A DNA stretch of 64,000 nt from the IMG/VR virus record IMGVR_UViG_3300032319_001025, positions 1 through 64,000 of that record; one strand, written 5' to 3'. This document shows, in pieces, positions 23,784 to 52,480 of this stretch (position 1 is its first letter; every line of letters starts with the position of its first letter). The notes under the pieces are model-generated. The model was not told the origin of the DNA. It ran no database searches and was given only the letters and a program-made list of their open reading frames with translations. This DNA is from a virus. Lineage: Duplodnaviria; Caudoviricetes. The position numbers and the translations under genes are program-made.

Positions 23784-24665
23784 ATGCCAAAAGATTTAAA
23801 AAATGCCAAAAAGGGTACAGCGTCAGTTTTTCCTGATGGAGTATATGATGCTGCTAACGGTCAAGACAGAGTTGAGGCGTTCTTAACTCCAGAAGTTTTT
23901 GTTTCAAGGTTTCTATGGGGTATTCCTTTAGTATCTCCAATTACCAAACAAAAACTAACTGATAATGACATTAAAGACTATATTACTCGAGGGGCTAATC
24001 AGCTTGAGTTTGACGCTCAAGTAGAGATATTCCCAGTAACTAGAAGACATAGGCTTCCATTTGACCCTAACTTGTATTACCAATGGATTTATCTAGAAGT
24101 ACCCAATAAGCCTATTCAAAAAGTAGTAAGAGCGGCCATTTGTTCAGCTTCATATTTAGATACGGGGGCTGAGAATGAAAATTCAAAATATCCAAGCGGT
24201 GCTAATATTTACCAGTTGCCTAATGACTGGATTGAAATGGGGAATGCTAGACGCGGAATTTTAAACGTAATTCCTATCAACCCAGCTTTTACGGCCATCG
24301 GCACTGGCGATGCAGTAGGAGCTACTGGAGCTGCTATTTTGGCTTTTATTGGTCAAATGGGATGGGTACCTTCATACTGGACAGTAGAATGTGTTCATGG
24401 TTTTTGTTCGGAAGATGGTAAAGTCCCCCATATCGTAAACGAAGCTATTGGTATGGCCGCAGCAATCAAAGTATTAAGCAATTTGTACCCTTTATTTAGA
24501 GTTACGAGCCAATCTCTTTCTATTGACGGATTAGGGCAATCTAATACAGATCAATTGCAACAACTATTGCAAGCAAAAATTCAACAGCTTCAAACTGATT
24601 ATCAGAAAATCGTTAATAGAATTAAAGCTATGGTTAGCAATAAAATGTTTAGCTCTAACGTTTAA
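23784..24665 (+). CDS. Putative head-tail adaptor/neck protein
   Basis: FLWGIPL, SQSLSIDGLGQS and C-terminal coiled coil resemble large-myovirus adaptor proteins; position fits. Confidence 0.6.
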   Translation: MPKDLKNAKKGTASVFPDGVYDAANGQDRVEAFLTPEVFVSRFLWGIPLVSPITKQKLTDNDIKDYITRGANQLEFDAQVEIFPVTRRHRLPFDPNLYYQWIYLEVPNKPIQKVVRAAICSASYLDTGAENENSKYPSGANIYQLPNDWIEMGNARRGILNVIPINPAFTAIGTGDAVGATGAAILAFIGQMGWVPSYWTVECVHGFCSEDGKVPHIVNEAIGMAAAIKVLSNLYPLFRVTSQSLSIDGLGQSNTDQLQQLLQAKIQQLQTDYQKIVNRIKAMVSNKMFSSNV

Positions 24666-25214: not shown

Positions 25215-27554
25215 ATGAAAATTAGTAAGGACATGATTAAGAAAAAGAAGTTTGTAGGCACTACTGGTAAAGGTATGCCTATACTTTTAGTATAGACTCA
25301 CGGGGGTCTTTATGCATGTTTTGCTCAAAATGATAGGGGTGAAATCGAAACTTTGTCAGCAGCTCCGCATAAAGCTATAGCTCTATTTTTAGCAGAAAAA
25401 AAAGATAAAAATTTAAAATGGCGAGAAGAGCTAGATGAACTAGTTAAATCTAGAGAAGCTCAATTAAGTAAAAATTTAAAACAAAAAATGTTCGCCCCAT
25501 CTGTACTGATTAAAAGTGATACAGATTGCTATCTAGTTTATGATTTTGATGAAGATAGCGTAATTATAACCAAAACAGAAGATTTATTAGAGCTTTATAA
25601 AAACAGAGAAATTAAACCTTCTAGTTTAATTAGAAAATCAAATTTAAGCGAAGAGCCTGTTTTTGCAAGTGATTTTGATTTTAATGAGATTATTAAAAAA
25701 GAAGAAGATTTAAAAGCAATGTACGGCTCAAGTATTACACCAGAGCAAGAGCAGTTTGTAAATTGGGCTACTACCAAACTTCCAGGAAATAATAATTGGC
25801 AAAAATGGGCGGTTAAAAATCATATTAAAGATCCCAAACAATTTACTACTGAAGTAATGCAGCATTTGGAGCACTACGGACAATCAAAACATATACCTGA
25901 AGTATCACAAGTTAAATTTTTAAATCATGACATTAAGCAAGGTTTAGAAGCTTTTAGACAGGCGGAAGACCAATATAATGCTAAAGCTGCATCAAAGCCA
26001 CAATTAATCAAACCATCAAAAAAAACTACCAAAATAATGGATGTCGGAGATGGATATGCCTGGTTTAATTTAAATACCAATAAATGTGATGCAGAAAGTA
26101 AAGCTATGGGGCATTGCGGTACTGCTGCAAATGAAAATCAAACTCTTTTGTCGTTACGTAAAATTTTAAAGGTTGGGGATCAAACATATCACGAACCAGT
26201 CGTAACCGCCTCAATGGACCCAGATGGTAAAAGTTTAAGGCAGATTAAAGGCAGAGCAAATTTAATACCCCAGCCAAAATATCATAAATATATTAAAGAG
26301 TTACTAGCTCATACTAAGTTAACTCCAGAAGGCGGGGAATATTTACCTGGCAATGATTTCCATTTAGACGATTTATCTCATGAAGAGCACGATGATTTAT
26401 TAGCAAAAAGACCAGACCTTGCAGGTTATTCTAACAGAATAAAACCAGAATTGCAGTTAAAACATCAGATGGAATTAATCAAAGATCCTAAAAACCATAA
26501 AGACTTAGCATATAACCTAAACCTCCACCCAGAAGCACAAAAACAATTAGCTCAAAGCCGAGATATAAACGTACTTCGCAACCTAGCATATAACAAAAAT
26601 CTCCACCCAGAAGCACAAAAACAATTAGCTCAAAGCAAAGATAAATACGTACTTTGCAACCTAGCAGAAAACCTAAACCTCCACCCAGAAGCACAAAAAC
26701 AATTAGCTCAAAGCAAAGATGAATACGTACTTGGCAACCTAGCATATAACAAAAATCTCCACCCAGAACTACAAAATCAATTAGCTCAAAGCAAAGATGA
26801 ATACGTACTTCGCAACCTAGCAAAAAACCTAAACCTCCACCCAGAACTACAAAATCAATTAGCTCAAAGCAAAGATGAATACGTACTTGGCAACCTAGCA
26901 TATAACAAAAATCTCCACCCAGAACTACAAAATCAATTAGCTCAAAGCAAAGATGAATACGTACTTGGCAACCTAGCAGAAAACCTAAACCTCCACCCAG
27001 AACTACAAAATCAATTAGCTCAAAGCAAAGATGAATACGTACTTCGCAACCTAGCAGAAAACCTAAACCTCCACCCAGAAGCACAAAATCAATTAGCTCA
27101 AAGCAAAGATGAATACGTACTTCGCAACCTAGCAAAAAACCTAAACCTCCACCCAGAACTACAAAATCAATTAGCTCAAAGCAAAGATGAAAACGTACTT
27201 CGCAACCTAGCATATAACGAAAACCTCCACCCAGAACTACAAAATCAATTAGCTCAAAGCCAAGATAAATACGTACTTTGCAACCTAGCATATAACGAAA
27301 ACCTCCACCCAGAACTACAAAATCAATTAGCTCAAAGCAAAGATGAAAACGTACTTAGAAATCTCATAATAAATTTAAAAACAGATTCCAAAATCAAAAA
27401 AGAAGTAATTAAAAAACTGCAAGAGTTAAATCCAAAATTAGCAGAAGAAGCAATTGGCGAATTAAGACTAGAAAAACTTAAACTAGAAAGCGAAAATAAT
27501 CAAAAAGCTAGAAAAGTAAGAGTTGAAGAATATTTTGATAAGCTTAAAGAGTAA
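25215..27554 (+). CDS. Polyvalent protein: N-terminal domain, PcfJ-like domain and 26-aa LRV/HEAT-like repeats; in-frame TAG at 25293
   Basis: ATG 25215 is in frame with ORF 25353..27554 apart from one TAG. ESKAMGHCG..LSLR..QIKGRAN is PcfJ-like; 11 tandem repeats follow. Confidence 0.65.
26514..27371 (+). repeat. 11 x 78-bp coding tandem repeat
   Basis: Near-identical units encoding N[LKE]NLHPE[AL]Q[KN]QLAQSKDEYVL[RCG]NLA[YEK]. Confidence 0.95.
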
Positions 27555-27559
27555 TTTTT

Positions 27560-28480
27560 ATGGACAAGAACGGACCAAGAAATAGAAGAGGTAGAAAACC
27601 AATAGGAACCCAAGCACCTATTAATTTAAATGAGGTGCAAGTTTCTTTTGATAAAGAAGCCTTCATGCATGCCATTAAAACGCATGGGGTTTACTTTACC
27701 CATTACAGATCTTTACCAGATCCAACAGGCATGCAATCTAAAGGTGATAGCCATGCTGTAGGCAACGGAAATCTTAGATCAAATTCAGATGGTTTTATTT
27801 ACAATAAGGTTGGCGAATTTAGAGCACTTTTTATGCTAAATTCTAACTACGCTCAACAATATCCAGAAGGGCATATTAGCTTTGCCACAGCATATGTCAC
27901 TTTACCCGAATTTTATGAAGATTGTAAAGATGAGGCTATTATTCTAGCTCCATATGATAGGCTTTATTTAAAAGATATTGAAGCCAGAGTCGTTCACAGG
28001 CAGTACGTTGAAGCCACAACAGTTGGAGTTGATAAATTACAGTTCCCAGCTACCTGCGTTGAAGCCTTAGTTGATGCTAACGGCGTTTCTTATAAAGAAA
28101 ATATCGATTTCGCTATTACACCTGAAGGTCATATTAAATGGTTAACACAAAAAAGACCAGGCTGGAACACAACTGTAAACAGAGGTACTGTATATTCAAT
28201 AAGATATAGATATACCCCATTTTTCGTGGTAGCCAGAATTATACATGAAATTAGGGTAGCTAATGTAACAAGTTTCACTGATTTTACTAATGAATCCAGA
28301 AAGTTAGAACGCATGCCTTATCAGGTTCAGGTAGTCAGAGAAAACGTTTACTACGATACCAATTTAGACCCGCTCAAGCCTATACCTGTACCAGATAGGC
28401 TAGTTGAGCAGCCAATAGAAGGCGCATTAAATGAAATAAATCCAGGCGGTTCTTTAGGACCTAAAAACGGTTCTGATTAA
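27560..28480 (+). CDS. Putative head-closure/neck protein
   Basis: DGFIY, YDRLY and YSIRYRYTP motifs; position after the adaptor. Confidence 0.55.
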   Translation: MDKNGPRNRRGRKPIGTQAPINLNEVQVSFDKEAFMHAIKTHGVYFTHYRSLPDPTGMQSKGDSHAVGNGNLRSNSDGFIYNKVGEFRALFMLNSNYAQQYPEGHISFATAYVTLPEFYEDCKDEAIILAPYDRLYLKDIEARVVHRQYVEATTVGVDKLQFPATCVEALVDANGVSYKENIDFAITPEGHIKWLTQKRPGWNTTVNRGTVYSIRYRYTPFFVVARIIHEIRVANVTSFTDFTNESRKLERMPYQVQVVRENVYYDTNLDPLKPIPVPDRLVEQPIEGALNEINPGGSLGPKNGSD

Positions 28481-28509: not shown

Positions 28510-28887
28510 ATGCTCAAAATTAGAGAAAAAGTAGCTCTAAAATTAAAAAGTTACGCTAAAGCTCTTGATATAGCATACAACGATGCTTCAGGAGCATTAA
28601 AAACAGTTCCATCGGGACATAAACTTTCAAATGGGGGCCAATCTTTAGCAGCTTCAGTTCCTTTTGATTATGGTCAAGTTTTAGCTATTTTTAATAATAG
28701 TAATGTAGTTGCTTTTGTAAAAACAGGACCCACAACAGCCGTTGCAGCCCCAACAGGTCCAACAAACGGAATTCCTGTTCCAGCATATAGCTGGTTATAT
28801 ATATCTTTAGGTGATGATTGTTTTGTCATTAGCAATAGTGCTAGCGTATTTGCTTATACGATAGATGATGATACATACGTCCAATAA
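28510..28887 (+). CDS. Small virion protein
   Basis: Late motif, GAGG RBS, beta-rich. Confidence 0.6.
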   Translation: MLKIREKVALKLKSYAKALDIAYNDASGALKTVPSGHKLSNGGQSLAASVPFDYGQVLAIFNNSNVVAFVKTGPTTAVAAPTGPTNGIPVPAYSWLYISLGDDCFVISNSASVFAYTIDDDTYVQ

Positions 28888-28895
28888 GGTGTAAC

Positions 28896-29843
28896 ATGGC
28901 TAAATATCCAAAAGAAAAAAAACAAAAAGAGATGGAAGAGGACAATAAAGTCCATGAATCCAAATCCCCTGAGCAAATCTTAAAAGAGCTTATTGACGCT
29001 TATGCCAAAGACAAGACCGTTAAAAAGCCAGTTCCGTCTATTTCTCAATTTGAACAAGGAAAATTTAGAAGAAAAACTCAGCCATATCAAGGCGAAAAAC
29101 CTGAAAAAGCTGAAAAGTCAGAACAAGTTCAAAAAAATATCGGCCTTCCATTGATGATGGACGAAAAAGCAGAAGACAAAAAATATCCTAAAAAGCTTGG
29201 TTCAAAAAACGTTGAAGCTCACATGAAGCGTTTGAAAGAAGAGCCAAGCAAATATCCAGGCGGCAAAAAACAAGCTATTGCTATTGGCCTATCTCAAGCC
29301 AGAGAAGGTACAAAAGAGCCAATGCCTAAAGCGAAGCTACCAAAAGCTGAAATAGAAAAAGCTGGCGAAATGCCTGCAGGTGCAGCAAAACCTAAAATGC
29401 CTAAGATGCCAAAAGCACCAGCAATGCCTTCTAAGCAGCCAATTGCTTCAGCTCAAAAACAAGCGCAAGCTTCTGCTAGTGGTAAACAAATGATGCCTAA
29501 GATGCCTAAATCAGCAGCACCTAAAAAGCAAGCTGCTCCATCTATGGCAACTAAATCAGACGAAAAAATTGCTAAAAATCAATTTGTTATTACTGAAGCA
29601 GAATTAAACAGCAAATGTACAGATTGCAATAAACCGCAATTTACTTTAACTAAAAATGAACATAAATTTACACCATGTATTTGTTACGCTTCAGAAAATC
29701 AAAGTAAAGAGCCTTTTGTTAAATTAATTAAAAGTGAAGGCAACACAAAGCTTTATTTTAATTCTAAAGCAGATCCAGAATCTGTTAAATCATTCTTACT
29801 TACACTTAAATTGGGACTTCTTGCGAAGAAGATCTCAAAATAA
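28896..29843 (+). CDS. Lys/Pro-rich putative internal head protein with C-terminal Cys domain
   Basis: KQAIAIGLSQAR motif, PKMPK repeats, KAE/KSE/KSD linkers, CTDC...CIC. Confidence 0.6.
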   Translation: MAKYPKEKKQKEMEEDNKVHESKSPEQILKELIDAYAKDKTVKKPVPSISQFEQGKFRRKTQPYQGEKPEKAEKSEQVQKNIGLPLMMDEKAEDKKYPKKLGSKNVEAHMKRLKEEPSKYPGGKKQAIAIGLSQAREGTKEPMPKAKLPKAEIEKAGEMPAGAAKPKMPKMPKAPAMPSKQPIASAQKQAQASASGKQMMPKMPKSAAPKKQAAPSMATKSDEKIAKNQFVITEAELNSKCTDCNKPQFTLTKNEHKFTPCICYASENQSKEPFVKLIKSEGNTKLYFNSKADPESVKSFLLTLKLGLLAKKISK

Positions 29844-29854
29844 AGAGATCTTTT

Positions 29855-31135
29855 ATGGTTTGGATAGTTATAAATGCTACCAATATCAGTGAGTCTTTAA
29901 ACAGACTTATTGATAGAGGAAATTTTAAAGATGCCCAAACCGTTAAGTACTACCTAGACAACTTCCTTAAAAAACTAAAAAGCCTGTGCCAAACTCATGG
30001 CGGAAGTGTTCACTTGTCTCTTTACGAGAGAGTCGTACTAGAAGTTTCGGTAAATGCAGCAGAACAAATTCCAAATATTATAGAAAATTATATGCCTAAT
30101 TTGAAAAGCAAAATGGGCATTGGAATAGGTATGAGTTTTGAGGAAGCTAATGAAGCAGCTCAAAAATCTTTACATACTAAAGAAATTGAAATGTATGAAA
30201 GCAAAAAAGAAGCTTCTGAATACATTAAAAGTGAACTATTAAAAGATGATGATATTGAACCAATTAGGCCAGCAGTGGATATGCCGCCAAACGTTTTTGA
30301 TCCAGAACTTCCAGATAGCAAAAACGTTACAAGAATAGTTCCAGAAAAAAGACCCATTCAAGAAGGTCAATATAGGCTTAATCAAGTTAAACCAACTAAA
30401 CCAAAATTAGCGCCAAATATTAAAGAGCAAGAACAAGGTCAAAAAACTTTAATAGATAACGTTTTAGACGAATTACTTTTTCCAAAAGAGCAAATTCAAC
30501 AGCAAGCACAATTAATGCAACAAAAAGCTCAACAGCAAATGGCTATGCAGCAGCAAATGCAAGCTCAACAAGAAAAAGAGCAGGCAACACAGCATTTACA
30601 AAATGTGCCAAAACAGCAAGAAACTGAAAAAGACGAACTAGAAGGTACGCCAGTAATACACTACGAAGACGAATCAGAAAAAGATCAAAGTTTACATAAA
30701 GAAGGCGAATCAGAAGATATCGAAAGTTCACATGAAGAAGATGAACACGATAAAGTTTCATTAAAGCTTTTAAACTTTTTAGGGCAGTTAAAAGAACAAA
30801 TGCCCGATTTAATGCAATTACATGCATCGAACCCAGAAGCTTTTAAGCAAGTAATGTCTTTAATTAATAAAATGCTTAAGCTATCTAAACACAAAATTAA
30901 AAAAAGTGACATTTCTTTAGCTGAAGAATTAGAAAAGAATTTTAAAAATTTAAAACATGCAAAAAAAATCAAGCAAGCTAAAGGAACCAGATTGCCAATT
31001 GGTACTTTAAAAGGAAGAAAAATTAAAGTAATGGTTAATGATAAACCAGTTTGGCGACAAGTAGCTTCTGGTATTGTTTCAGACAGTAAAGGTGTTCCAA
31101 TTTCTGTTAAATCTAGAAACTTAGATACAGAATAA
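29855..31135 (+). CDS. Protein with N-terminal catalytically degenerate mCpol/GGDEF-like domain
   Basis: Residues 1-115 align by eye with the mCpol domain of 40350..41783, with DGD changed to NAT and GGDD to LYER. Confidence 0.6.
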   Translation: MVWIVINATNISESLNRLIDRGNFKDAQTVKYYLDNFLKKLKSLCQTHGGSVHLSLYERVVLEVSVNAAEQIPNIIENYMPNLKSKMGIGIGMSFEEANEAAQKSLHTKEIEMYESKKEASEYIKSELLKDDDIEPIRPAVDMPPNVFDPELPDSKNVTRIVPEKRPIQEGQYRLNQVKPTKPKLAPNIKEQEQGQKTLIDNVLDELLFPKEQIQQQAQLMQQKAQQQMAMQQQMQAQQEKEQATQHLQNVPKQQETEKDELEGTPVIHYEDESEKDQSLHKEGESEDIESSHEEDEHDKVSLKLLNFLGQLKEQMPDLMQLHASNPEAFKQVMSLINKMLKLSKHKIKKSDISLAEELEKNFKNLKHAKKIKQAKGTRLPIGTLKGRKIKVMVNDKPVWRQVASGIVSDSKGVPISVKSRNLDTE

Positions 31136-31136
31136 T

Positions 31137-31991
31137 ATGCGTTTTAAACTTGAACATGACCTAACCGACCTAGCTTCAAAAGTATCATCAGATATAGATA
31201 GATTAAAAGCACGTGCTGATGAAGAATCTAAAACTATTGCCGCTCAAGTAAGAGCTTTTATTATAGGTAAAGCTTTAAATGAATTAAATTCATTTCAGCA
31301 ACAGGCTTATCTTGGAAAAGATCATGAAAACGTTAAAATGAGTAGACTTGGCGACGGAATCTATTTAATAGAGCTAGACAATAAAGCTCTCGAGATAGAA
31401 AACGGCTCACCTAAAAAGTTCATGCGCTGGCTTATTGATAAGAATCCCAAAGCTAAAACTGCTAAAGACGGCAGCAGGTATGCGCATATACCATTTTCTC
31501 AAAATGGACCTGGCAAAAAAGGTGCAACTTCAAAAGTAAACGATCCAAGGGCAGCTTTTTTTGACATTGTTAATAAAACATTAAAAGATCAAAACATTGA
31601 TTTAAAAAAAATAGAAACAAATTCTGATGGTACACCCAAACTAGGTGTTTTGCATAAAGTTGATATGTCAAGCTTTATAGCAGGTGACAAAAATAGGTCT
31701 AATTTTTCTATGCCAAGAAGTCAAGAAATGGCCGCTAAGATTGGATTGCAGCCCCACACTGGAATACATAAGCTCCAAGGATTAGTTGTTACGCAAAGAA
31801 TGGGCAAAGACGGTAAAGTAGTTAAAGAAGCGATGACTTTTAGGACTATTTCTACAAAGCATGAAGCTGAAGGAAGATGGTATTACCCAGAACAGAAGCC
31901 TTTAAACGCATTTCCAGCAGCCTATGATTTTGCCAAAACTCTAATGGATGAGGCAATTAGGCGGTTAAATCAAGAATTTGGCGGTAGATAA
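31137..31991 (+). CDS. Putative neck/tail-completion protein
   Basis: KTAKDGSRYAHIPF and MTFRTIS...WYYP motifs; position fits. Confidence 0.55.
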   Translation: MRFKLEHDLTDLASKVSSDIDRLKARADEESKTIAAQVRAFIIGKALNELNSFQQQAYLGKDHENVKMSRLGDGIYLIELDNKALEIENGSPKKFMRWLIDKNPKAKTAKDGSRYAHIPFSQNGPGKKGATSKVNDPRAAFFDIVNKTLKDQNIDLKKIETNSDGTPKLGVLHKVDMSSFIAGDKNRSNFSMPRSQEMAAKIGLQPHTGIHKLQGLVVTQRMGKDGKVVKEAMTFRTISTKHEAEGRWYYPEQKPLNAFPAAYDFAKTLMDEAIRRLNQEFGGR

Positions 31992-31995
31992 TTAG

Positions 31996-32005
31996 TCTTA
32001 ATCTA
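31996..32005 (+). promoter_or_regulatory. Putative late promoter TCTTAATCTA
   Basis: Six nt upstream of ATG 32012. Confidence 0.6.
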
Positions 32006-32011
32006 TTAGGT

Positions 32012-32974
32012 ATGGCCATTATACCTACAGACATACTCGTTAAAACAGCACTAGAAGCTGGTTTAAATGACCTTAGAAAGAATAATTTCATTTTAGATGA
32101 CGTAATAGCTGGACTAGCTACAGATACGCTGTCTAAAACCGAATACGGCTACAAAGAGATTCATGCCTATAAGCAATGGTTTTTAAACAATAAAATACCA
32201 GTTTATTTAGATTTTAGGGTAGATTCGCCCGAAATGCCATGTATTACAATAACAAGCTCACCCAGAGCTGAATTAATACCTAGAACTTCATTAGGTGATA
32301 CTTTAGGCGGTCCAGAAGACATAAGCACTGAAAAAGTCTCAATAAATCCTATCAAAGTGTATGAAAATTTTACACCGTTTGAATATGATAAAACTACTGG
32401 TAAGGTTACTTTTCCAAGTGGCATAACTACAGAATATGCAGTAGTAGGTCAATTTTTAGTTTCATCTAGAACTGGAAAAGCTTATCAAATACTTGAAATT
32501 ATTGATAATTCTACTTTTAAAATTAAAGCAAACGTGAACGAAGATTTTACTGATGCTTATGTAGTTCCGCCAGTATCTGTATGGAATTTACAAAGAGAAG
32601 TAACATTTGTATCTGAAACTGTTTATATTGGAGTTCATACTCAGTCAGATCCTGTACAAAATCAATGGCTTCACGATACTATTTGGTATATACTTTTAAG
32701 ATGTAAAGAAGTTTATTTTGAAGGAAGAGGATTTGAATTAAGTACCATGCAATCAGATGCCATGTATTTAAATCCAAATTTTAAAGAAACTGATCGTATT
32801 TTTAGTAGAAACATAACTCTTTCTGGACAGATTGAAATTAATTTTATTAAATATGCAGCACCAAAATTACAAGACGTTCGTGGTGTCATTAGAATTGCAG
32901 ATGGTCCTAAAACTCCACCAGGTGTAAATCCTAAAGATTATTCACCTACCTGGAAAATGGAACAAGACGATTAA
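32012..32974 (+). CDS. Putative tail terminator/completion protein
   Basis: PCITI and IFSRNITLSG motifs; precedes the sheath in neck gene order. Confidence 0.55.
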   Translation: MAIIPTDILVKTALEAGLNDLRKNNFILDDVIAGLATDTLSKTEYGYKEIHAYKQWFLNNKIPVYLDFRVDSPEMPCITITSSPRAELIPRTSLGDTLGGPEDISTEKVSINPIKVYENFTPFEYDKTTGKVTFPSGITTEYAVVGQFLVSSRTGKAYQILEIIDNSTFKIKANVNEDFTDAYVVPPVSVWNLQREVTFVSETVYIGVHTQSDPVQNQWLHDTIWYILLRCKEVYFEGRGFELSTMQSDAMYLNPNFKETDRIFSRNITLSGQIEINFIKYAAPKLQDVRGVIRIADGPKTPPGVNPKDYSPTWKMEQDD

Positions 32975-38500: not shown

Positions 38501-39292
38501 GCTAAAAAAGATAGAATGGATGATGAAGCGAAAGCTTTAATTTCTTGGGGGCAAAAAAACAAATTAGCCCCAGCATCTTTTAAAGATATTACGCATGAGC
38601 ATTTAGATCAAATTGCTGAAAAATATTCAGATTTTGCAAATGCACACAGAGAGCAGCATAATTCTGATCCAGAATTACCAGTTCAGTTGCCCGTACACAT
38701 GATTGAAGGTTATGGTAAAATTCCTAAAGCTATGGGTTATAAAGAATCTTTTTATGGTAAGCTGCCTACTCAAAGTAATGAGGAATATAAAATTAAACCA
38801 GAAATAAATCAATCTGCAGCCCCGACATACGAAGATGTAATTAGAAAGAACGAAGGACAACCAACTATTTTACATCATTATAGTAGACACCAAGATCTAA
38901 AAGAACTAGACCCTAAAAAAGAGGGTATGGGTGTTAGAGGAGATCATACAAAAAGATTTTTACCATATCAAATAAAAAACTTTCCACATGTAACATTTTA
39001 TTACATAAATGATACTCCAGAGCAAATAGTTAAAGATGCAGCTAAGTCAAAATACACCGTAAAACTAGAGCCACATCAAAAACTATATAACTTGCATACA
39101 GATCCTGAAGGTTTAGGAAGGCAGGCGATTGCAGAAAACCAAGGTGCATGGAATTATGAAAAAATCTTTAATAAAATTAAAAATGCTGGATACCATGGTA
39201 TAACTGCAATAGGCTCTGAACATCCAATTATTGGAAATACCGTAATGCTATTTCATCCTCAAGCGATACATGAGGAGAAAAAATTAGTATGA
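35591..39292 (+). CDS. Large polyvalent protein: helical repeats, acidic region, DEIQSD domain and C-terminal ART-like domain
   Basis: IGWVRY...HIDEIQSDL; after the linker IRKNE comes LHHYS..LDP..G.G..TFYY..PE..AGYHGI. Confidence 0.65.
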   Translation: MPKILHGIFSKLDKYSNDVQTKAEKYIKSPEFNEKTYLNLLSGKYNDDIARIIEVLPSVKKSKYNTKSNNDKIISNVLNFKQKDDADFFWKAGYIEYFLRHLKHSTESVNKIINFVKNKKKIPTEEKTNLLRSLNKSSEIKKTNIKDIIDTVPNDPTGASVINLFINHPSVDSKIFNEVLKKFDFNSNRLPGGVLTSKFLTSEAALKILNDTDTIGDSNELDKLLSKLPKSARNDYIHSKLGITGGSKSPSPEEYETDWFHGPERDEITARTISESKYLTPEAINHIKKHGGFGEKYGLFSNEHVDPKHAAEMAAKWANDEDGYEESDFKERLKEDNQDNVWDNYSDDAREKVQEEYPISKYLRDIGDDEVSRTLFDKDHDEWKKDWIKENKDLTGPNPDFNPEEPESEDNPKNITFNEDEYDIKYPVEDHPNYSDYDSEAEEAFENAKNHADLEPFYDGYDESINENVSDAVSDLFDDELDNWTEHDHFLPEHVRDKLKDPLKGKENPTEKDLEEAIYHPLKIVRDHAAKHEKLSPRLINKVLEEGDKKAKMSVLENPNITSQQLMNVIKKDDDKETVSKALRNFKITPEHVQEAINRHNENSEIMNAAFKSHAANDEHVKNYLNIAKSSKTPYYNDLSPIVNSKFNLSPEDVNFIYNKFNEQGRYNDLSKLVSHHNSTKDIIEQSLKHHDYKVKESAKKMMDRKFPQSADPVNVKMGTHPLRVLRDIVSEQGGTTTKGKLKNLGINPDKFNTLFKPNGTISSDDIQKVIDSAPSKNYNTSHDKWTGAQRHSADPSDVFQLNYTQEHLNEMQKEGVLDTFQKIHEVAMRSGHPVKNNTIGWVRYTGSPEEGFHIDEIQSDLGKSIINQTIQQAKNAVQNNQMTTEQAETAVENAKNKFPEDHLKKINKILFEDKHPSEIIHEAFKEYMRGKGFEKTPIHIWQPESKAPISGMRQSTKISASDAKTALNSAKKDRMDDEAKALISWGQKNKLAPASFKDITHEHLDQIAEKYSDFANAHREQHNSDPELPVQLPVHMIEGYGKIPKAMGYKESFYGKLPTQSNEEYKIKPEINQSAAPTYEDVIRKNEGQPTILHHYSRHQDLKELDPKKEGMGVRGDHTKRFLPYQIKNFPHVTFYYINDTPEQIVKDAAKSKYTVKLEPHQKLYNLHTDPEGLGRQAIAENQGAWNYEKIFNKIKNAGYHGITAIGSEHPIIGNTVMLFHPQAIHEEKKLV

Positions 39293-40353
39293 AAAATTTG
39301 ATTAAACAGCCGCATTTGATTTTTTCAATGGAAAATCCTAGATATCAGGTAACCCAAAAAGATATAAATCATGGACAAGCTTTAAATATGCTTAAAGATT
39401 TAGGCGAGAATACTATTGATTCTAATGGAAAATATGGATCGGAAGAGCCATCAATTATAGTTTCTAACCCTAAAAACGTTAAAGATATAATCAAGCTTGC
39501 TAGAGATGCTGGACAAGAATCTATTATTTACTCAGATGGAAAAAGACATAAAATGATATATTTAAACGGTCCCCAAGCTGGACAAACGGTTAATGGGGAA
39601 GGTACGGTTTTCTACAATCAGAAACCAAATGATAACTACACACATTTTAAAGATCAAAACGGTAAAGATATTTATTTTACTCATAATTTTGATTTTGGTA
39701 AATCAGAGAAATTGCAAAAAACTTCTAAAATTAATTTGAATCCAGAACATGGGAAAATTATCGCAAATGCATACGAAAAAATGAAACATGATCCAAATGA
39801 TCCTAAAGTTAAAGAGGCGTATGGTGCGCTAATTAATGAAACAAAAAAACAATTTAAAGATATGTTAAATTCTGGGTTTAAATTTTCTAAAATTAAACCC
39901 GAACAGTCCAATCCATATGGCACATCAAAAGATGTACATGAAGATATAGAAAAAAATAAACATTTATGGTTTTTTCCAACAGAACAGGGATTTGGTCAAG
40001 AGGGACAAACTAAAAATCATCCAATGCTAGAATCAACTGAATTTCAATTTGAAGGTAAACCTTTATTAGCTAATGATCTGTTTAGAATAGTTCACGATTA
40101 TCGCGGTCATTATTTAGGAGGTAAAAGCTCGTTCGGACCTAAAGGAGAGCATCAAGCTTATCTTACACATAAAAAAGATTTTAGCCCTTTAGCTCAAAAA
40201 GCTTTGGCTACAGAAACTATGGGTCAAAATAATTGGGTAAATTTTGGACCATATGGAGAAAAAAACAGAAAAAACCCCGAAAACACTACATACGCAGAAC
40301 AAAAATCGGGGCTTCTTCCTGACGAAATAATAAATGGGAGATGGCACGAATGA
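39289..40353 (+). CDS. Two-domain protein: SAM-lyase/DUF3293-like plus putative metal-binding domain
   Basis: GKYGSEEPS...AGQESII; linker FGKSEKLQKT; NDLFRIVHDYRGH..GE..H..ETMGQN. Confidence 0.55.
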   Translation: MKNLIKQPHLIFSMENPRYQVTQKDINHGQALNMLKDLGENTIDSNGKYGSEEPSIIVSNPKNVKDIIKLARDAGQESIIYSDGKRHKMIYLNGPQAGQTVNGEGTVFYNQKPNDNYTHFKDQNGKDIYFTHNFDFGKSEKLQKTSKINLNPEHGKIIANAYEKMKHDPNDPKVKEAYGALINETKKQFKDMLNSGFKFSKIKPEQSNPYGTSKDVHEDIEKNKHLWFFPTEQGFGQEGQTKNHPMLESTEFQFEGKPLLANDLFRIVHDYRGHYLGGKSSFGPKGEHQAYLTHKKDFSPLAQKALATETMGQNNWVNFGPYGEKNRKNPENTTYAEQKSGLLPDEIINGRWHE

Positions 40354-41783
40354 ATCATAAACATTACAGAAGGATACTGCTCGACTCTTTTGATGAAAAT
40401 TCTTTGCAAAAAGGTTCAAAAGGCGATTGGCAAAAAGAAGGGTACAAAATACATCATGTTGGAGATCCTAAAAGTAGTTTTGACGTTATTGCAGTTTCCC
40501 CAAAAGGAGAAACCATCGGTAAGGTAAATATTGGAAGATACGAAACAAAAACAAAACCAAATCTAGTGGCTTCTAACCCAATTGTACATAAAGATCACAG
40601 ACGTAAAGGTATCGCATCTGCTATGTATCAATATGCAGAAAAAGTATCTGGTGGAGTAATGAAACCAGATGTAGGATTAACTTTATCGGCAAAACAAATG
40701 TGGGCTAAACCAAATAGACCTTTTGGCGGTAAACGTAAATATTTTCAACATTTAATATCTAAATCAGAATTAAAGAAGGCACCATTTATTCATGAACACA
40801 ATGCTTTTGCAGCAAGTAATATAGGTCCTTATATCGGAGAAGATTCAGAATTAGAATCTGTTACCAATCATAAAGGTTACAAGGTTTATAAATATAAAGA
40901 CGGCGATTATCATTATTTTGCTATACATAAAGATAACGATCCCAAAAAAGAAGTACTTTCATCAGCTACCGTATCTTCTTATTACGATCCTGAAGATCCA
41001 AATTTTGACGAAAATGAAGGGTTGCCTTATATTGAACATGCAGCAACGTTATCAGAACACCAAGGTAAAGGCATGGGAACAGCCATTCATGAGGCTGCAA
41101 CAAAACATTTTGGAACATTATTAAGCAGTACCGCGCTTTCTCCAGGAAGCGACGCAACTTGGAAAAAGATGCGTGCAAATAAAAACATAAAATTAAAAAT
41201 TGGAAGAGGTGAATCAAGTCCCTATATAGCTAAATGGATTAAAAAGCCCAAAATTAACAAAACAGAAGATTTAAATCAACTAGCTAAAGGTTTTGAAGAA
41301 TTATTTGGTTTTTTGGCTAAAGCAAAAAAGAATATTATATATATAGCTACCGATGGAGATAATATCGGTGCTTCAGTTGAAAGGGCCGCTCTATCTAACG
41401 ATATTAAAGAAATTAAAAAACAAGATAAAATTATTAAAAGAGGTAATCAAACCGTAAGAAAGTGGATTAAAAAACGCAAAGGTTCAATTTATATTGACGG
41501 TGGCGATGATATTTCTTTTACTATTCATAAAAAATATTTAGATGAAATCGAAGAACTAAGGAATAAATATCATGAGGCTACTGGATATACAATCACAGTT
41601 GGAATAGGTGATAGTATATCAGAAGCCGCTCATGCCATGGTTTATGGTAAATTAAAAGGCAAAAACCAAGTAAATAGATGGACATCAGAAATAGAATCTA
41701 TTATTTCTCAGCATGATAAAAAACCTGAATCCGCAGAAGAAAAATATCAAAAAGAAGGTCTTTTGGTTCCCAAAAAGATATAA
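40350..41783 (+). CDS. Polyvalent protein: GNAT, GNAT and mCpol (GGDD) cyclase-like domain
   Basis: HRRKGIASAMY; HQGKGMGTAIH; YIATDGDNIG...IDGGDD...TVGIG...GKNQV. ATGA overlap with the previous gene. Confidence 0.8.
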   Translation: MNHKHYRRILLDSFDENSLQKGSKGDWQKEGYKIHHVGDPKSSFDVIAVSPKGETIGKVNIGRYETKTKPNLVASNPIVHKDHRRKGIASAMYQYAEKVSGGVMKPDVGLTLSAKQMWAKPNRPFGGKRKYFQHLISKSELKKAPFIHEHNAFAASNIGPYIGEDSELESVTNHKGYKVYKYKDGDYHYFAIHKDNDPKKEVLSSATVSSYYDPEDPNFDENEGLPYIEHAATLSEHQGKGMGTAIHEAATKHFGTLLSSTALSPGSDATWKKMRANKNIKLKIGRGESSPYIAKWIKKPKINKTEDLNQLAKGFEELFGFLAKAKKNIIYIATDGDNIGASVERAALSNDIKEIKKQDKIIKRGNQTVRKWIKKRKGSIYIDGGDDISFTIHKKYLDEIEELRNKYHEATGYTITVGIGDSISEAAHAMVYGKLKGKNQVNRWTSEIESIISQHDKKPESAEEKYQKEGLLVPKKI

Positions 41784-51052: not shown

Positions 51053-52480
51053 ATGAAAAAAAGTAAAAAATCAATTTTAATTTCTCAAAAAAAAACTTGG
51101 CCAGCTGAAAAAACTCTTCAAAAGATCCAAGAAAAATACCCTGAAATTATCTCAATAGATAAATCTACTTACATTAATACAAAATTTAAAGCTCTTTTTA
51201 CAGATAAAGATTTTGGCGATTTTTGGGCAACCCCTAACAGACTTTTAAAAGGTGGTAAACATCCGAGCAGGTCTTATAAAAATATGCAAATTTCTTTAGA
51301 AGAAATTAAAAAAAGACTTCCACCAGAAGTGACAATAATTGAAAATACATATTTAGGCACTAAAAAAGTAGCTACTTTTATAGATAAAGATTATGGAGAG
51401 TTTACAAAAATAGTTGAATATGTTTTAGTATCTAGATATCCTCACCCCAAAAGATTATCAGACAAAAAAAAGAAGCACAAACTAATTCATCCAGATGAAA
51501 TTCAATCCAGATTGGATTCCATGGGAGCAGGTATAAAAATCAAAAAAGAAACCTATACTAAAATGCATTCACGTGCCATTTTTATTGACCCTAAGTTTGG
51601 TGAATGGGAAGCATTACCTTACAATGTTATTTTCAATCAAACTCGTCACCCAAAACATAAAAATAATCCTTTAATAGAGCAAAAGATATGCGATTTTTTA
51701 AAATTAAAAAATATAAATTTTAAGAGGAACCAAAAAATAATAAAAAAAGATGGTTATCCATTAGAAATAGATGTTTACCTGCCAGACTACAATATTGGAA
51801 TAGAAACAAACGGTCTGTATTGGCATTGTGAATTAAAAAAAGGTAAATATTTTCATAAAGAAAAACATGAACTAGCAGAATCTCAAGGTATCAAGCTAAT
51901 ATCTTTTTTTGAAGATGAAATTAATTTTAAATTTGATTTAATCTGTTCAATTTTATCTAGTAAGCTCAATATAATTGAAAACAAAATTAATGCTAGAAAT
52001 TGTGAAATTGTTAAAGTTAACTTTAAGGAAGCTAAAGTTTTTTGCAACGAAAATCATTTAATGGGGTTTAGAAGTTCTTTTTTAAATATCGGCCTTAAAA
52101 AAGACGGTAAACTAGTACAATTAATCACTTTTGGAAAAAACAAAAAATATGGCGTTGAATTAGTAAGATTTTGCACTGTAAAAAATTCATCTGTTGTGGG
52201 TGGGTTTTCTAAATTAATAAAATATGCCCAAATTAAACTTAAAGAGCTAGGATACAATTCAATTATGTCTTATGCAGATAAAAGAATAAGCAATGGTCAG
52301 GTTTATATAAAAAATGACTTTAAATTGGACGGTATTACTCCGCCAGATATGTTTTGGACAGATAAAGAGGTTAGGCTATCAAGAAGGGCATCCTGGGGCA
52401 AAAAAGACGATCAAATGAGGCTGGAGGGTTACCATAAGATATTTGGCCCTGGTCATTATAGATTTATTAAATATATTTAG
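51053..52480 (+). CDS. Free-standing homing-endonuclease-like protein (PD-(D/E)xK type)
   Basis: Three N-terminal D..FG.F...HP repeats; LEIDVYLPDYNIGIETNGLYWH; own TTGCTT-N16-TATAAT promoter at 51010-51037. Confidence 0.75.
   Translation: MKKSKKSILISQKKTWPAEKTLQKIQEKYPEIISIDKSTYINTKFKALFTDKDFGDFWATPNRLLKGGKHPSRSYKNMQISLEEIKKRLPPEVTIIENTYLGTKKVATFIDKDYGEFTKIVEYVLVSRYPHPKRLSDKKKKHKLIHPDEIQSRLDSMGAGIKIKKETYTKMHSRAIFIDPKFGEWEALPYNVIFNQTRHPKHKNNPLIEQKICDFLKLKNINFKRNQKIIKKDGYPLEIDVYLPDYNIGIETNGLYWHCELKKGKYFHKEKHELAESQGIKLISFFEDEINFKFDLICSILSSKLNIIENKINARNCEIVKVNFKEAKVFCNENHLMGFRSSFLNIGLKKDGKLVQLITFGKNKKYGVELVRFCTVKNSSVVGGFSKLIKYAQIKLKELGYNSIMSYADKRISNGQVYIKNDFKLDGITPPDMFWTDKEVRLSRRASWGKKDDQMRLEGYHKIFGPGHYRFIKYI

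Follow-up and report, generated by a model that had tools for sequence, protein, structure and literature searches.

We analysed a window of 64,000 nucleotides (positions 1 to 64,000 of IMG/VR record IMGVR_UViG_3300032319_001025), taken from a tailed-phage genome of 144 kb that has direct terminal repeats, is rated 100% complete and has Myxococcus phage Mx1 as its closest cultured relative. Two open reading frames within it carry an mCpol-type ‘minimal palm’ domain. In one, which lies in a tight same-strand block with gaps of 1-20 nt between genes, the domain is degenerate; we call this the ‘slot’ gene, after the fixed position that it holds in related phages, and its product P0001. In the other, which belongs to a variable block of ‘cargo’ ORFs further downstream, the domain is canonical. 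The features that matter here are as follows.

23784-24665: match to SPO1 gp6.3 (E 8e-10)
27560..28480, + strand: upstream anchor of the slot, homologue of the SPO1 virion structural protein gp6.4 (tblastn E 7e-10; phrog_1004)
29855-31135, + strand: slot gene, encoding P0001 (426 aa)
29855..30199, + strand: degenerate mCpol (minimal palm) domain, residues 1-115 of P0001 (AlphaFold2 model, OptS structural match, hhalign)
30200..30742, + strand: variable linker, residues 116-296; rich in Q and acidic residues, largely disordered, one long helix predicted
30743..30979, + strand: conserved helical ‘NPEAFK’ domain, residues 297-375
30980..31135, + strand: basic beta-rich tail, residues 376-426, and the stop codon
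31137-31991, + strand: gp7.1-like gene, downstream anchor of the slot (BLASTP against SPO1 gp7.1, E 1e-5)
32012-32974, + strand: gene at the gp7.2 / tail-terminator position (weak PF23932 match, E 0.095)
40341..41783, + strand: cargo ORF in the variable cargo block, GNAT-GNAT-mCpol, 480 aa (Pfam Acetyltransf_1/7 and mCpol)
41340..41675, + strand: canonical mCpol domain (DGD ... GGDD ... GIGxSxSEA ... YGK), C-terminal, residues 334-445 of the cargo ORF (PF18182)

The slot gene is flanked by homologues of SPO1 gp6.4 and gp7.1 and of other phage late genes; in SPO1, gp6.3, gp6.4 and gp7.1 belong to the stretch that spans the major head protein to the sheath. Both sides of the slot also have counterparts in Mx1 (tblastn E 1e-37 for 27560-28480; E 8e-45 for the downstream anchors, 31137..32974) and are syntenic in all relatives. 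In eight IMG/VR relatives recovered with the eroded family (G001-G008), a block of six genes around the slot gene is kept and the cargo ORFs downstream vary. The slot gene is a fixed component, in a fixed position, of the SPO1-like neck cluster of ~150-kb Mx1-like myophages. What this cluster holds in addition to that of SPO1 is the slot gene itself, its companions 28510-28887 and 28896-29843, and the flanking blocks of cargo ORFs. Pfam and PHROG scans of the neighbours found no Panoptes effector (2TM-beta or CARF-TM) adjoining the slot gene, and a promoter/terminator scan gave nothing above shuffled controls. The companion directly upstream (28896-29843) encodes a K/P/A/Q-rich low-complexity protein of 315 aa with a sub-threshold DUF6496 match and a C-terminal cysteine cluster (CTDC...C.C); among relatives, conservation of this protein is confined to the C-terminal half, and the gene travels with the slot gene.

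P0001 and its family (18 proteins, 30-76% identical to the window protein) have one common architecture. Their N-terminal domain, of about 115 residues, is invariant at G49, G50, G90, G92, E97, A98, A101 and S105, with a mean pairwise identity of 45% and 2% gaps, compared with 30% identity and 36% gaps in the linker; in the AlphaFold2 model of P0001 the linker falls below a pLDDT of 50 over residues 118-179 and 246-296, with helices at 189-246. Our profiles represent the full-length family (A1), its N-terminal domain (A2), the cargo mCpol family (A4) and canonical phage mCpols (A6). Within A1, the NPEAFK domain is invariant at L309, P317, N326, P327, A329, F330 and K331, and the same domain is found in Mx1 and in the more distant ‘NGD/GDE’ clade described below; the beta tail, with a mean pairwise identity of 57%, is invariant at P381, G383, K391, V392, W400, R401, G406, D410, S417, V418 and N422, and is present in Mx1 and absent from the NGD/GDE clade. 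Modelled alone, the C-terminal half reaches a pLDDT of only 64.7. A VIA-wide search with it gave no informative fold match (generic helices, Z<=7.3), an Atlas search no usable match, and BFVD one uncharacterised member of the same family. The KLAASE and YF(K/Q)NLKK linker tags were found only in the cargo ORFs 32985, 41867 and 43018 and not in P0001, so there is no support for processing of the cargo type.

We confirm that residues 1-115 of P0001 form a true mCpol-type palm domain that has been catalytically eroded. A preliminary description of this DNA had placed a degenerate mCpol homologue at 29855-30200, which corresponds to these residues, some 11 kb upstream of an active copy (11.5 kb by our count, in ORF 40341-41783), and the homology that it proposed is borne out by structure and by profile searches alike. 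The profile alignment is significant and the predicted fold is the expected one, so that neither of the outcomes named there as refuting arose. The AlphaFold2 model, built on the family alignment, has a pLDDT of about 90 over residues 1-115 and a beta-alpha-alpha-beta-beta-alpha-beta-alpha order; its six best Foldseek matches in the PDB are all Panoptes OptS/mCpol chains (E 1.6e-5 to 4e-4, TM 0.61-0.76). A VIA search, independent of Foldseek, likewise puts OptS first (9mnr_A, Z 13.7, rmsd 2.5, 115/119 aligned), with the runner-up at Z 11.1, such that OptS stands 2.6 Z units above cyclases, GTP cyclohydrolase III, Cas10/Cmr2 and GGDEF domains. Aligned profile to profile, the eroded and cargo domains (A2 against A4) match significantly with hhalign (Prob 90.7%, E 1.3e-6, 116 columns), and BLASTP, as a single comparison, joins them without a gap (101 residues, 17% identity, E 3e-4); the ungapped alignment in the preliminary description, whose quoted strings both occur in the sequence, is reproduced by this match. 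Likeness to the Panoptes enzymes (PF18182; PDB 9mnr, 9pd0, 9nwn; PMC12657218, PMC12657230, PMC13577387) extends over essentially the whole N-terminal domain, in a collinear end-to-end profile alignment, and includes a common GxG...(S/T)xxEA..A motif after strand 4. P0001 differs in that its gene has no adjoining effector, and in that the domain is fused to a tail of ~310 residues and encoded in a phage neck cluster.

Against 1.84 billion representative proteins, the A2 HMM finds 90 clusters at E<=1e-3, with the domain always at the N-terminus; we aligned 31 of these (the 25 weakest and six long forms), and 21 of the resulting 32 sequences, P0001 included, belong to PF18182, with a best E of 5e-17. 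P0001 itself has no PF18182 match at E<=1 and does not reach the gathering threshold of 26.4 bits, and relatives in its own clade score 14-24 bits. A6 picks up the eroded slot gene of five relatives (E 1.5e-5 to 4e-11) and does not report the copy in the window. Scanned with Pfam and PHROG, the 426-aa protein drew only low-complexity matches and a sub-threshold match to GCH_III, which is palm-related; A1 retrieved only poly-Q noise from the PDB sequences, and A2 retrieved OptS at ranks 2-3 with an E of 0.3-0.4, which is not significant alone. A tblastn search of P0001 against 50,697 GenBank phage records had no match at 1e-3, and Mx1 was reached only through the genes neighbouring the slot gene.

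In KpOptS, full activity depends on D6 and D57, the metal-holding residues, and two protomers share the pocket (PMC12657218), and the hairpin mutant D63N/D64N of a type II mCpol is inactive (PMC13577387). With the catalytic columns placed by alignment through OptS and then tabulated by column, P0001 reads N7-A-T9 on the first strand (D6->N7, D8->T9) and L57-Y58-E59-R60 in place of the GGDD hairpin, with the GG turn replaced by L57 and Y58, the second acid by R60, and E59, at OptS D57, as the sole surviving acid. In 106 representatives of the eroded family, S, N or A predominates at D6, and Y-[E/D]-R in the hairpin. Also replaced are the YGK...K lysines of canonical mCpols, which by analogy with GGDEF domains would be phosphate contacts. 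The loss of metal-binding aspartates reported in the preliminary description stands for D6 and D8, and extends to the GG turn and the second hairpin acid, but it is incomplete, since E59 keeps an acid at D57. We predict with high confidence, from these residues, that the N-terminal domain of P0001 is catalytically dead; E59 and the conserved Y-[E/D]-R hairpin may nevertheless allow ligand binding or some unusual chemistry at the old active site.

The mCpol domain of the cargo ORF has none of these losses. It is the only site in the 144-kb genome to pass PF18182 (E 2.7e-19, and 1.9e-21 in a second scan), and its profile, searched against the PDB, retrieves OptS (E 1.1e-5), both catalytic positions being occupied by Asp. 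The module sits behind GNAT-GNAT in the window (40341-41783) and behind a SAM-lyase-like N-terminus in G001 (L001 13306-14229); because the N-terminal partner differs between the two, we take it to move between fusion partners, that is, to be a separately acquired, shuffling-prone module. The ORF at 39289-40353 has a sub-threshold S-AdoMet lyase match over its N-terminal ~120 residues (PF23780, E 1.3e-4), and a similar sub-threshold match is seen in an Mx1 protein (L013 13604-15280).

Which of the two copies belongs to the neck cluster is settled by more distant phages. We gathered a further 29 viral loci (L014-L042) through NGD/GDE members of the wider family and examined the matches in ten; in all ten, the six-gene block recurs, and the gene that lies between the gp6.4-like gene and the genes resembling gp7.1 and 32012 has an N-terminus that matches the canonical mCpol of the window, at 27-38% identity, and not the eroded copy. 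Fully canonical slot genes read DGD/GGDE in L029, L036 and L037, and DAD/GGDE in L039. Most of the intact-looking slot mCpols (P0086-P0108) have an invariant Asn at OptS D6 (NGD), with GDE hairpin and YGK lysines preserved; NGD slot mCpols were noted at about 10001-10375 in L015, L017, L020, L021, L024, L027 and L042. Judging by their residues, the activity of these NGD/GDE orthologues is uncertain and should not be assumed. Like P0001, the canonical and NGD/GDE orthologues (L014-L042; P0086-P0108) occupy the slot with an N-terminal mCpol domain and a helical NPE(A/L)(F/Y) domain; unlike it, they pass PF18182 (best E 5e-17), match OptS at E 1e-13, retain the GDE hairpin and the YGK lysines, have mostly Asn and in a minority Asp at D6, and have no basic beta tail. 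Since the same slot holds a canonical-matching gene in these distant loci, the eroded gene of the window is, by position, the orthologue of a slot gene that was ancestrally catalytic, and the canonical copy is the extra one. Read from the alignments, the slot gene is found across phages in three states: canonical (DGD/GGDE), D6N (NGD/GDE) and eroded.

The one cultured member of the family, Mx1 WNM70340 (OR576727.2, 33963-35369; L013 9964-11370; annotated as a hypothetical protein), is encoded in the same slot and resembles P0001 in its eroded N-terminal mCpol (PF18182 E 4.6e-4, below threshold), its helical domain, here NPEAFE, and its basic beta tail. It differs from P0001 in belonging to another eroded sub-clade (near P0099-P0101), in having an insert before the tail, and in coming from a genome without a canonical mCpol.

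A quick IQ-TREE analysis of 103 domains, unrooted, with few columns for the number of rows and no bacterial outgroup, separates 77 eroded domains from 26 others with an SH-aLRT of 96. The 26 comprise the NGD/GDE and cargo clades, which group together (SH-aLRT 99), a Mx1-like clade and a few singletons. The two copies in this genome fall on opposite sides of the deepest supported split and, on this tree, are not recent duplicates. When a phage mCpol profile was run against one genome for each of 185,579 prokaryote species, the single match was L049 (PLEQ01000023.1), an 8-kb contig of a Deltaproteobacteria MAG that is probably a phage contig binned into the MAG; the phage-type mCpol signature looks virus-restricted.

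The coexistence of a dead and a live palm in one phage invites the idea, put forward in the preliminary description, that the two proteins form a split, Cas10-like heterodimer, in which the dead domain would supply the acceptor/base-binding half of a pocket shared with the cargo mCpol, much as the degenerate Palm1 does beside the active Palm2 in Cas10. The retention of a dead palm next to a live one does have a precedent in Cas10 and degenerate GGDEF proteins, which have the palm fold in common with P0001 (Z 10.4 for Cmr2, about 10 for GGDEF); the mCpol pocket is itself built from two protomers (PMC12657218), and both copies lie on one strand of one late gene block, here and in G001. Co-occurrence in related phages, a check that the preliminary description itself proposed, tells against the pairing. 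The eroded slot gene is present in nine relatives, G001-G008 and Mx1; only in G001 (74% identical) does a canonical mCpol accompany it. No canonical mCpol was found in G002 (100% complete), G003 (96%), G006 (96%) or Mx1, where the eroded gene is the sole mCpol-like sequence; G002, G003 and G006 were searched with both the Pfam model and the more sensitive phage profile A6, which matched the slot gene only. In G009-G012 (96-100% complete), as in Mx1, there is exactly one mCpol-like sequence per genome, and it is the slot gene. As the eroded gene mostly occurs without a canonical copy, an obligate partnership is ruled out for the family, and the eroded and working copies are probably not an obligate pair. 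Moreover, the eroded domains make up an old and broad clade (77 representative clusters on their side of the supported split), the cargo module switches fusion partner between the two closest genomes, and the two copies are only 17% identical; in contrast to the Cas10 pair, the palms are separate proteins that are not inherited together. We regard the heterodimer as very improbable indeed. A lineage-specific partnership could exist in this phage and G001, both of which carry two copies, and nothing supports it. One version of it would have the slot domain retained for pairing with mCpol-type protomers, either the phage’s own cargo enzyme or host OptS, with cyclase activity passed to the cargo module and cyclic-nucleotide output tuned or re-routed early in infection. 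Were this so, the phage would have built, in the slot domain, a regulatory subunit for a signalling enzyme of the immune type; we think it very unlikely.

The domain might instead be a relic in decay, itself functionless and persisting only as a folded spacer, with the C-terminal half doing the work of the protein. Its dN/dS against G001, 0.19 (NG86) to 0.30 (LWL85), is looser than the 0.05 of a neighbouring structural gene, and the window copy, missed by the A6 profile, is for that reason judged more eroded than those of G002-G006. Against decay, the 18 proteins, which diverge to as little as 30% identity, retain the length and secondary structure of the N-terminal domain with 2% gaps and vary little or not at all at several positions, and the domain is N-terminal in 90/90 of the clusters found. 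A set of residues, namely W3, D20-x-G22, R60, P73 and I111-E112, is conserved in the eroded clade and not in canonical mCpols. The eroded domain is under purifying selection and is maintained rather than decaying; a relic is, in our view, distinctly unlikely.

Degenerate GGDEF domains bind ligands in some c-di-GMP receptors and GTP sensors. A dead active site that still binds a nucleotide or cyclic oligonucleotide, as sponge or sensor, would be in keeping with the conserved former active-site hairpin (an acid and an Arg in most of the family) and with the purifying selection on the domain. Yet the first-strand Asp pair, the GG turn and the YGK...K lysines are all replaced, and the RxxD I-site motif of degenerate GGDEF receptors is absent upstream of the hairpin, where residues 49-60 read GGSVHLSLYER; the gene, furthermore, lies in a late structural operon and not among early anti-defence genes. 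A sponge would also carry a risk in a Panoptes host: the mCpol signal keeps the effectors off, and switching off host mCpol triggers the system (PMC12657218, PMC12657230), so that depletion of host mCpol products would set it off (PMC12657218). Although the likeliest of these alternatives, a ligand-binding role is still unlikely. The same logic makes the suggested dominant-negative inhibitor of host mCpol unattractive, because loss of the host signal would trigger the abortive Panoptes defence, and a benefit to the phage is therefore unlikely (PMC12657218, PMC12657230).

The explanation that we favour, and hold to be reasonably probable, is that the eroded domain is an exapted pseudoenzyme ‘head’ on a late and probably virion-associated protein, acting without the cargo mCpol. 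We suggest that the ancestral slot protein started with a working mCpol cyclase, and that in this lineage its N-terminal domain became a pseudoenzyme, keeping the fold, the structural glycines and the helix caps as most of the catalytic residues went; a new conserved set (W3, D20-x-G22, the Y-[E/D]-R hairpin, P73 and I111-E112) would have replaced the catalytic one. We infer a non-catalytic role for the domain today; given that mCpol itself assembles into dimers and tetramers, the likeliest is that of a head for oligomerisation or binding. This head would be carried on a late protein, presumably associated with the virion, together with the helical NPEAFK domain and the basic beta tail, and the slot protein would act independently of the canonical mCpol in ORF 40341-41783. 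Virion proteomics for Mx1 were not found in the literature that we searched.

In that literature, the sole role given to mCpol is that of signal synthase in Panoptes, a bacterial guard system. The large-myophage group described here, with an mCpol-headed protein in a fixed slot that runs from canonical through D6N to eroded, offers a natural series on one fold with and without catalysis; this genome, with its slot copy eroded and its cargo copy canonical, is the best test case for partnership versus independence, and since Mx1 is cultured the slot gene is open to genetic testing. This analysis adds the finding of an eroded and a canonical copy together in a single genome, the explicit test of co-inheritance, with its outcome against pairing, alongside the documented orthology of the slot, and the Asn at the first metal site of most of the intact-looking slot orthologues.

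Finally, two further ORFs around the cluster deserve mention. Upstream of the neck block, window 25353-27554 encodes a 733-aa repeat protein that matches three consecutive stretches of L001 5-5097, which suggests tandem paralogues or an expansion in G001. On the tail side, downstream of the candidate sheath gene, 51053-52480 is an HNH/homing-endonuclease-like ORF (phrog_3339 E 5e-72, phrog_559).
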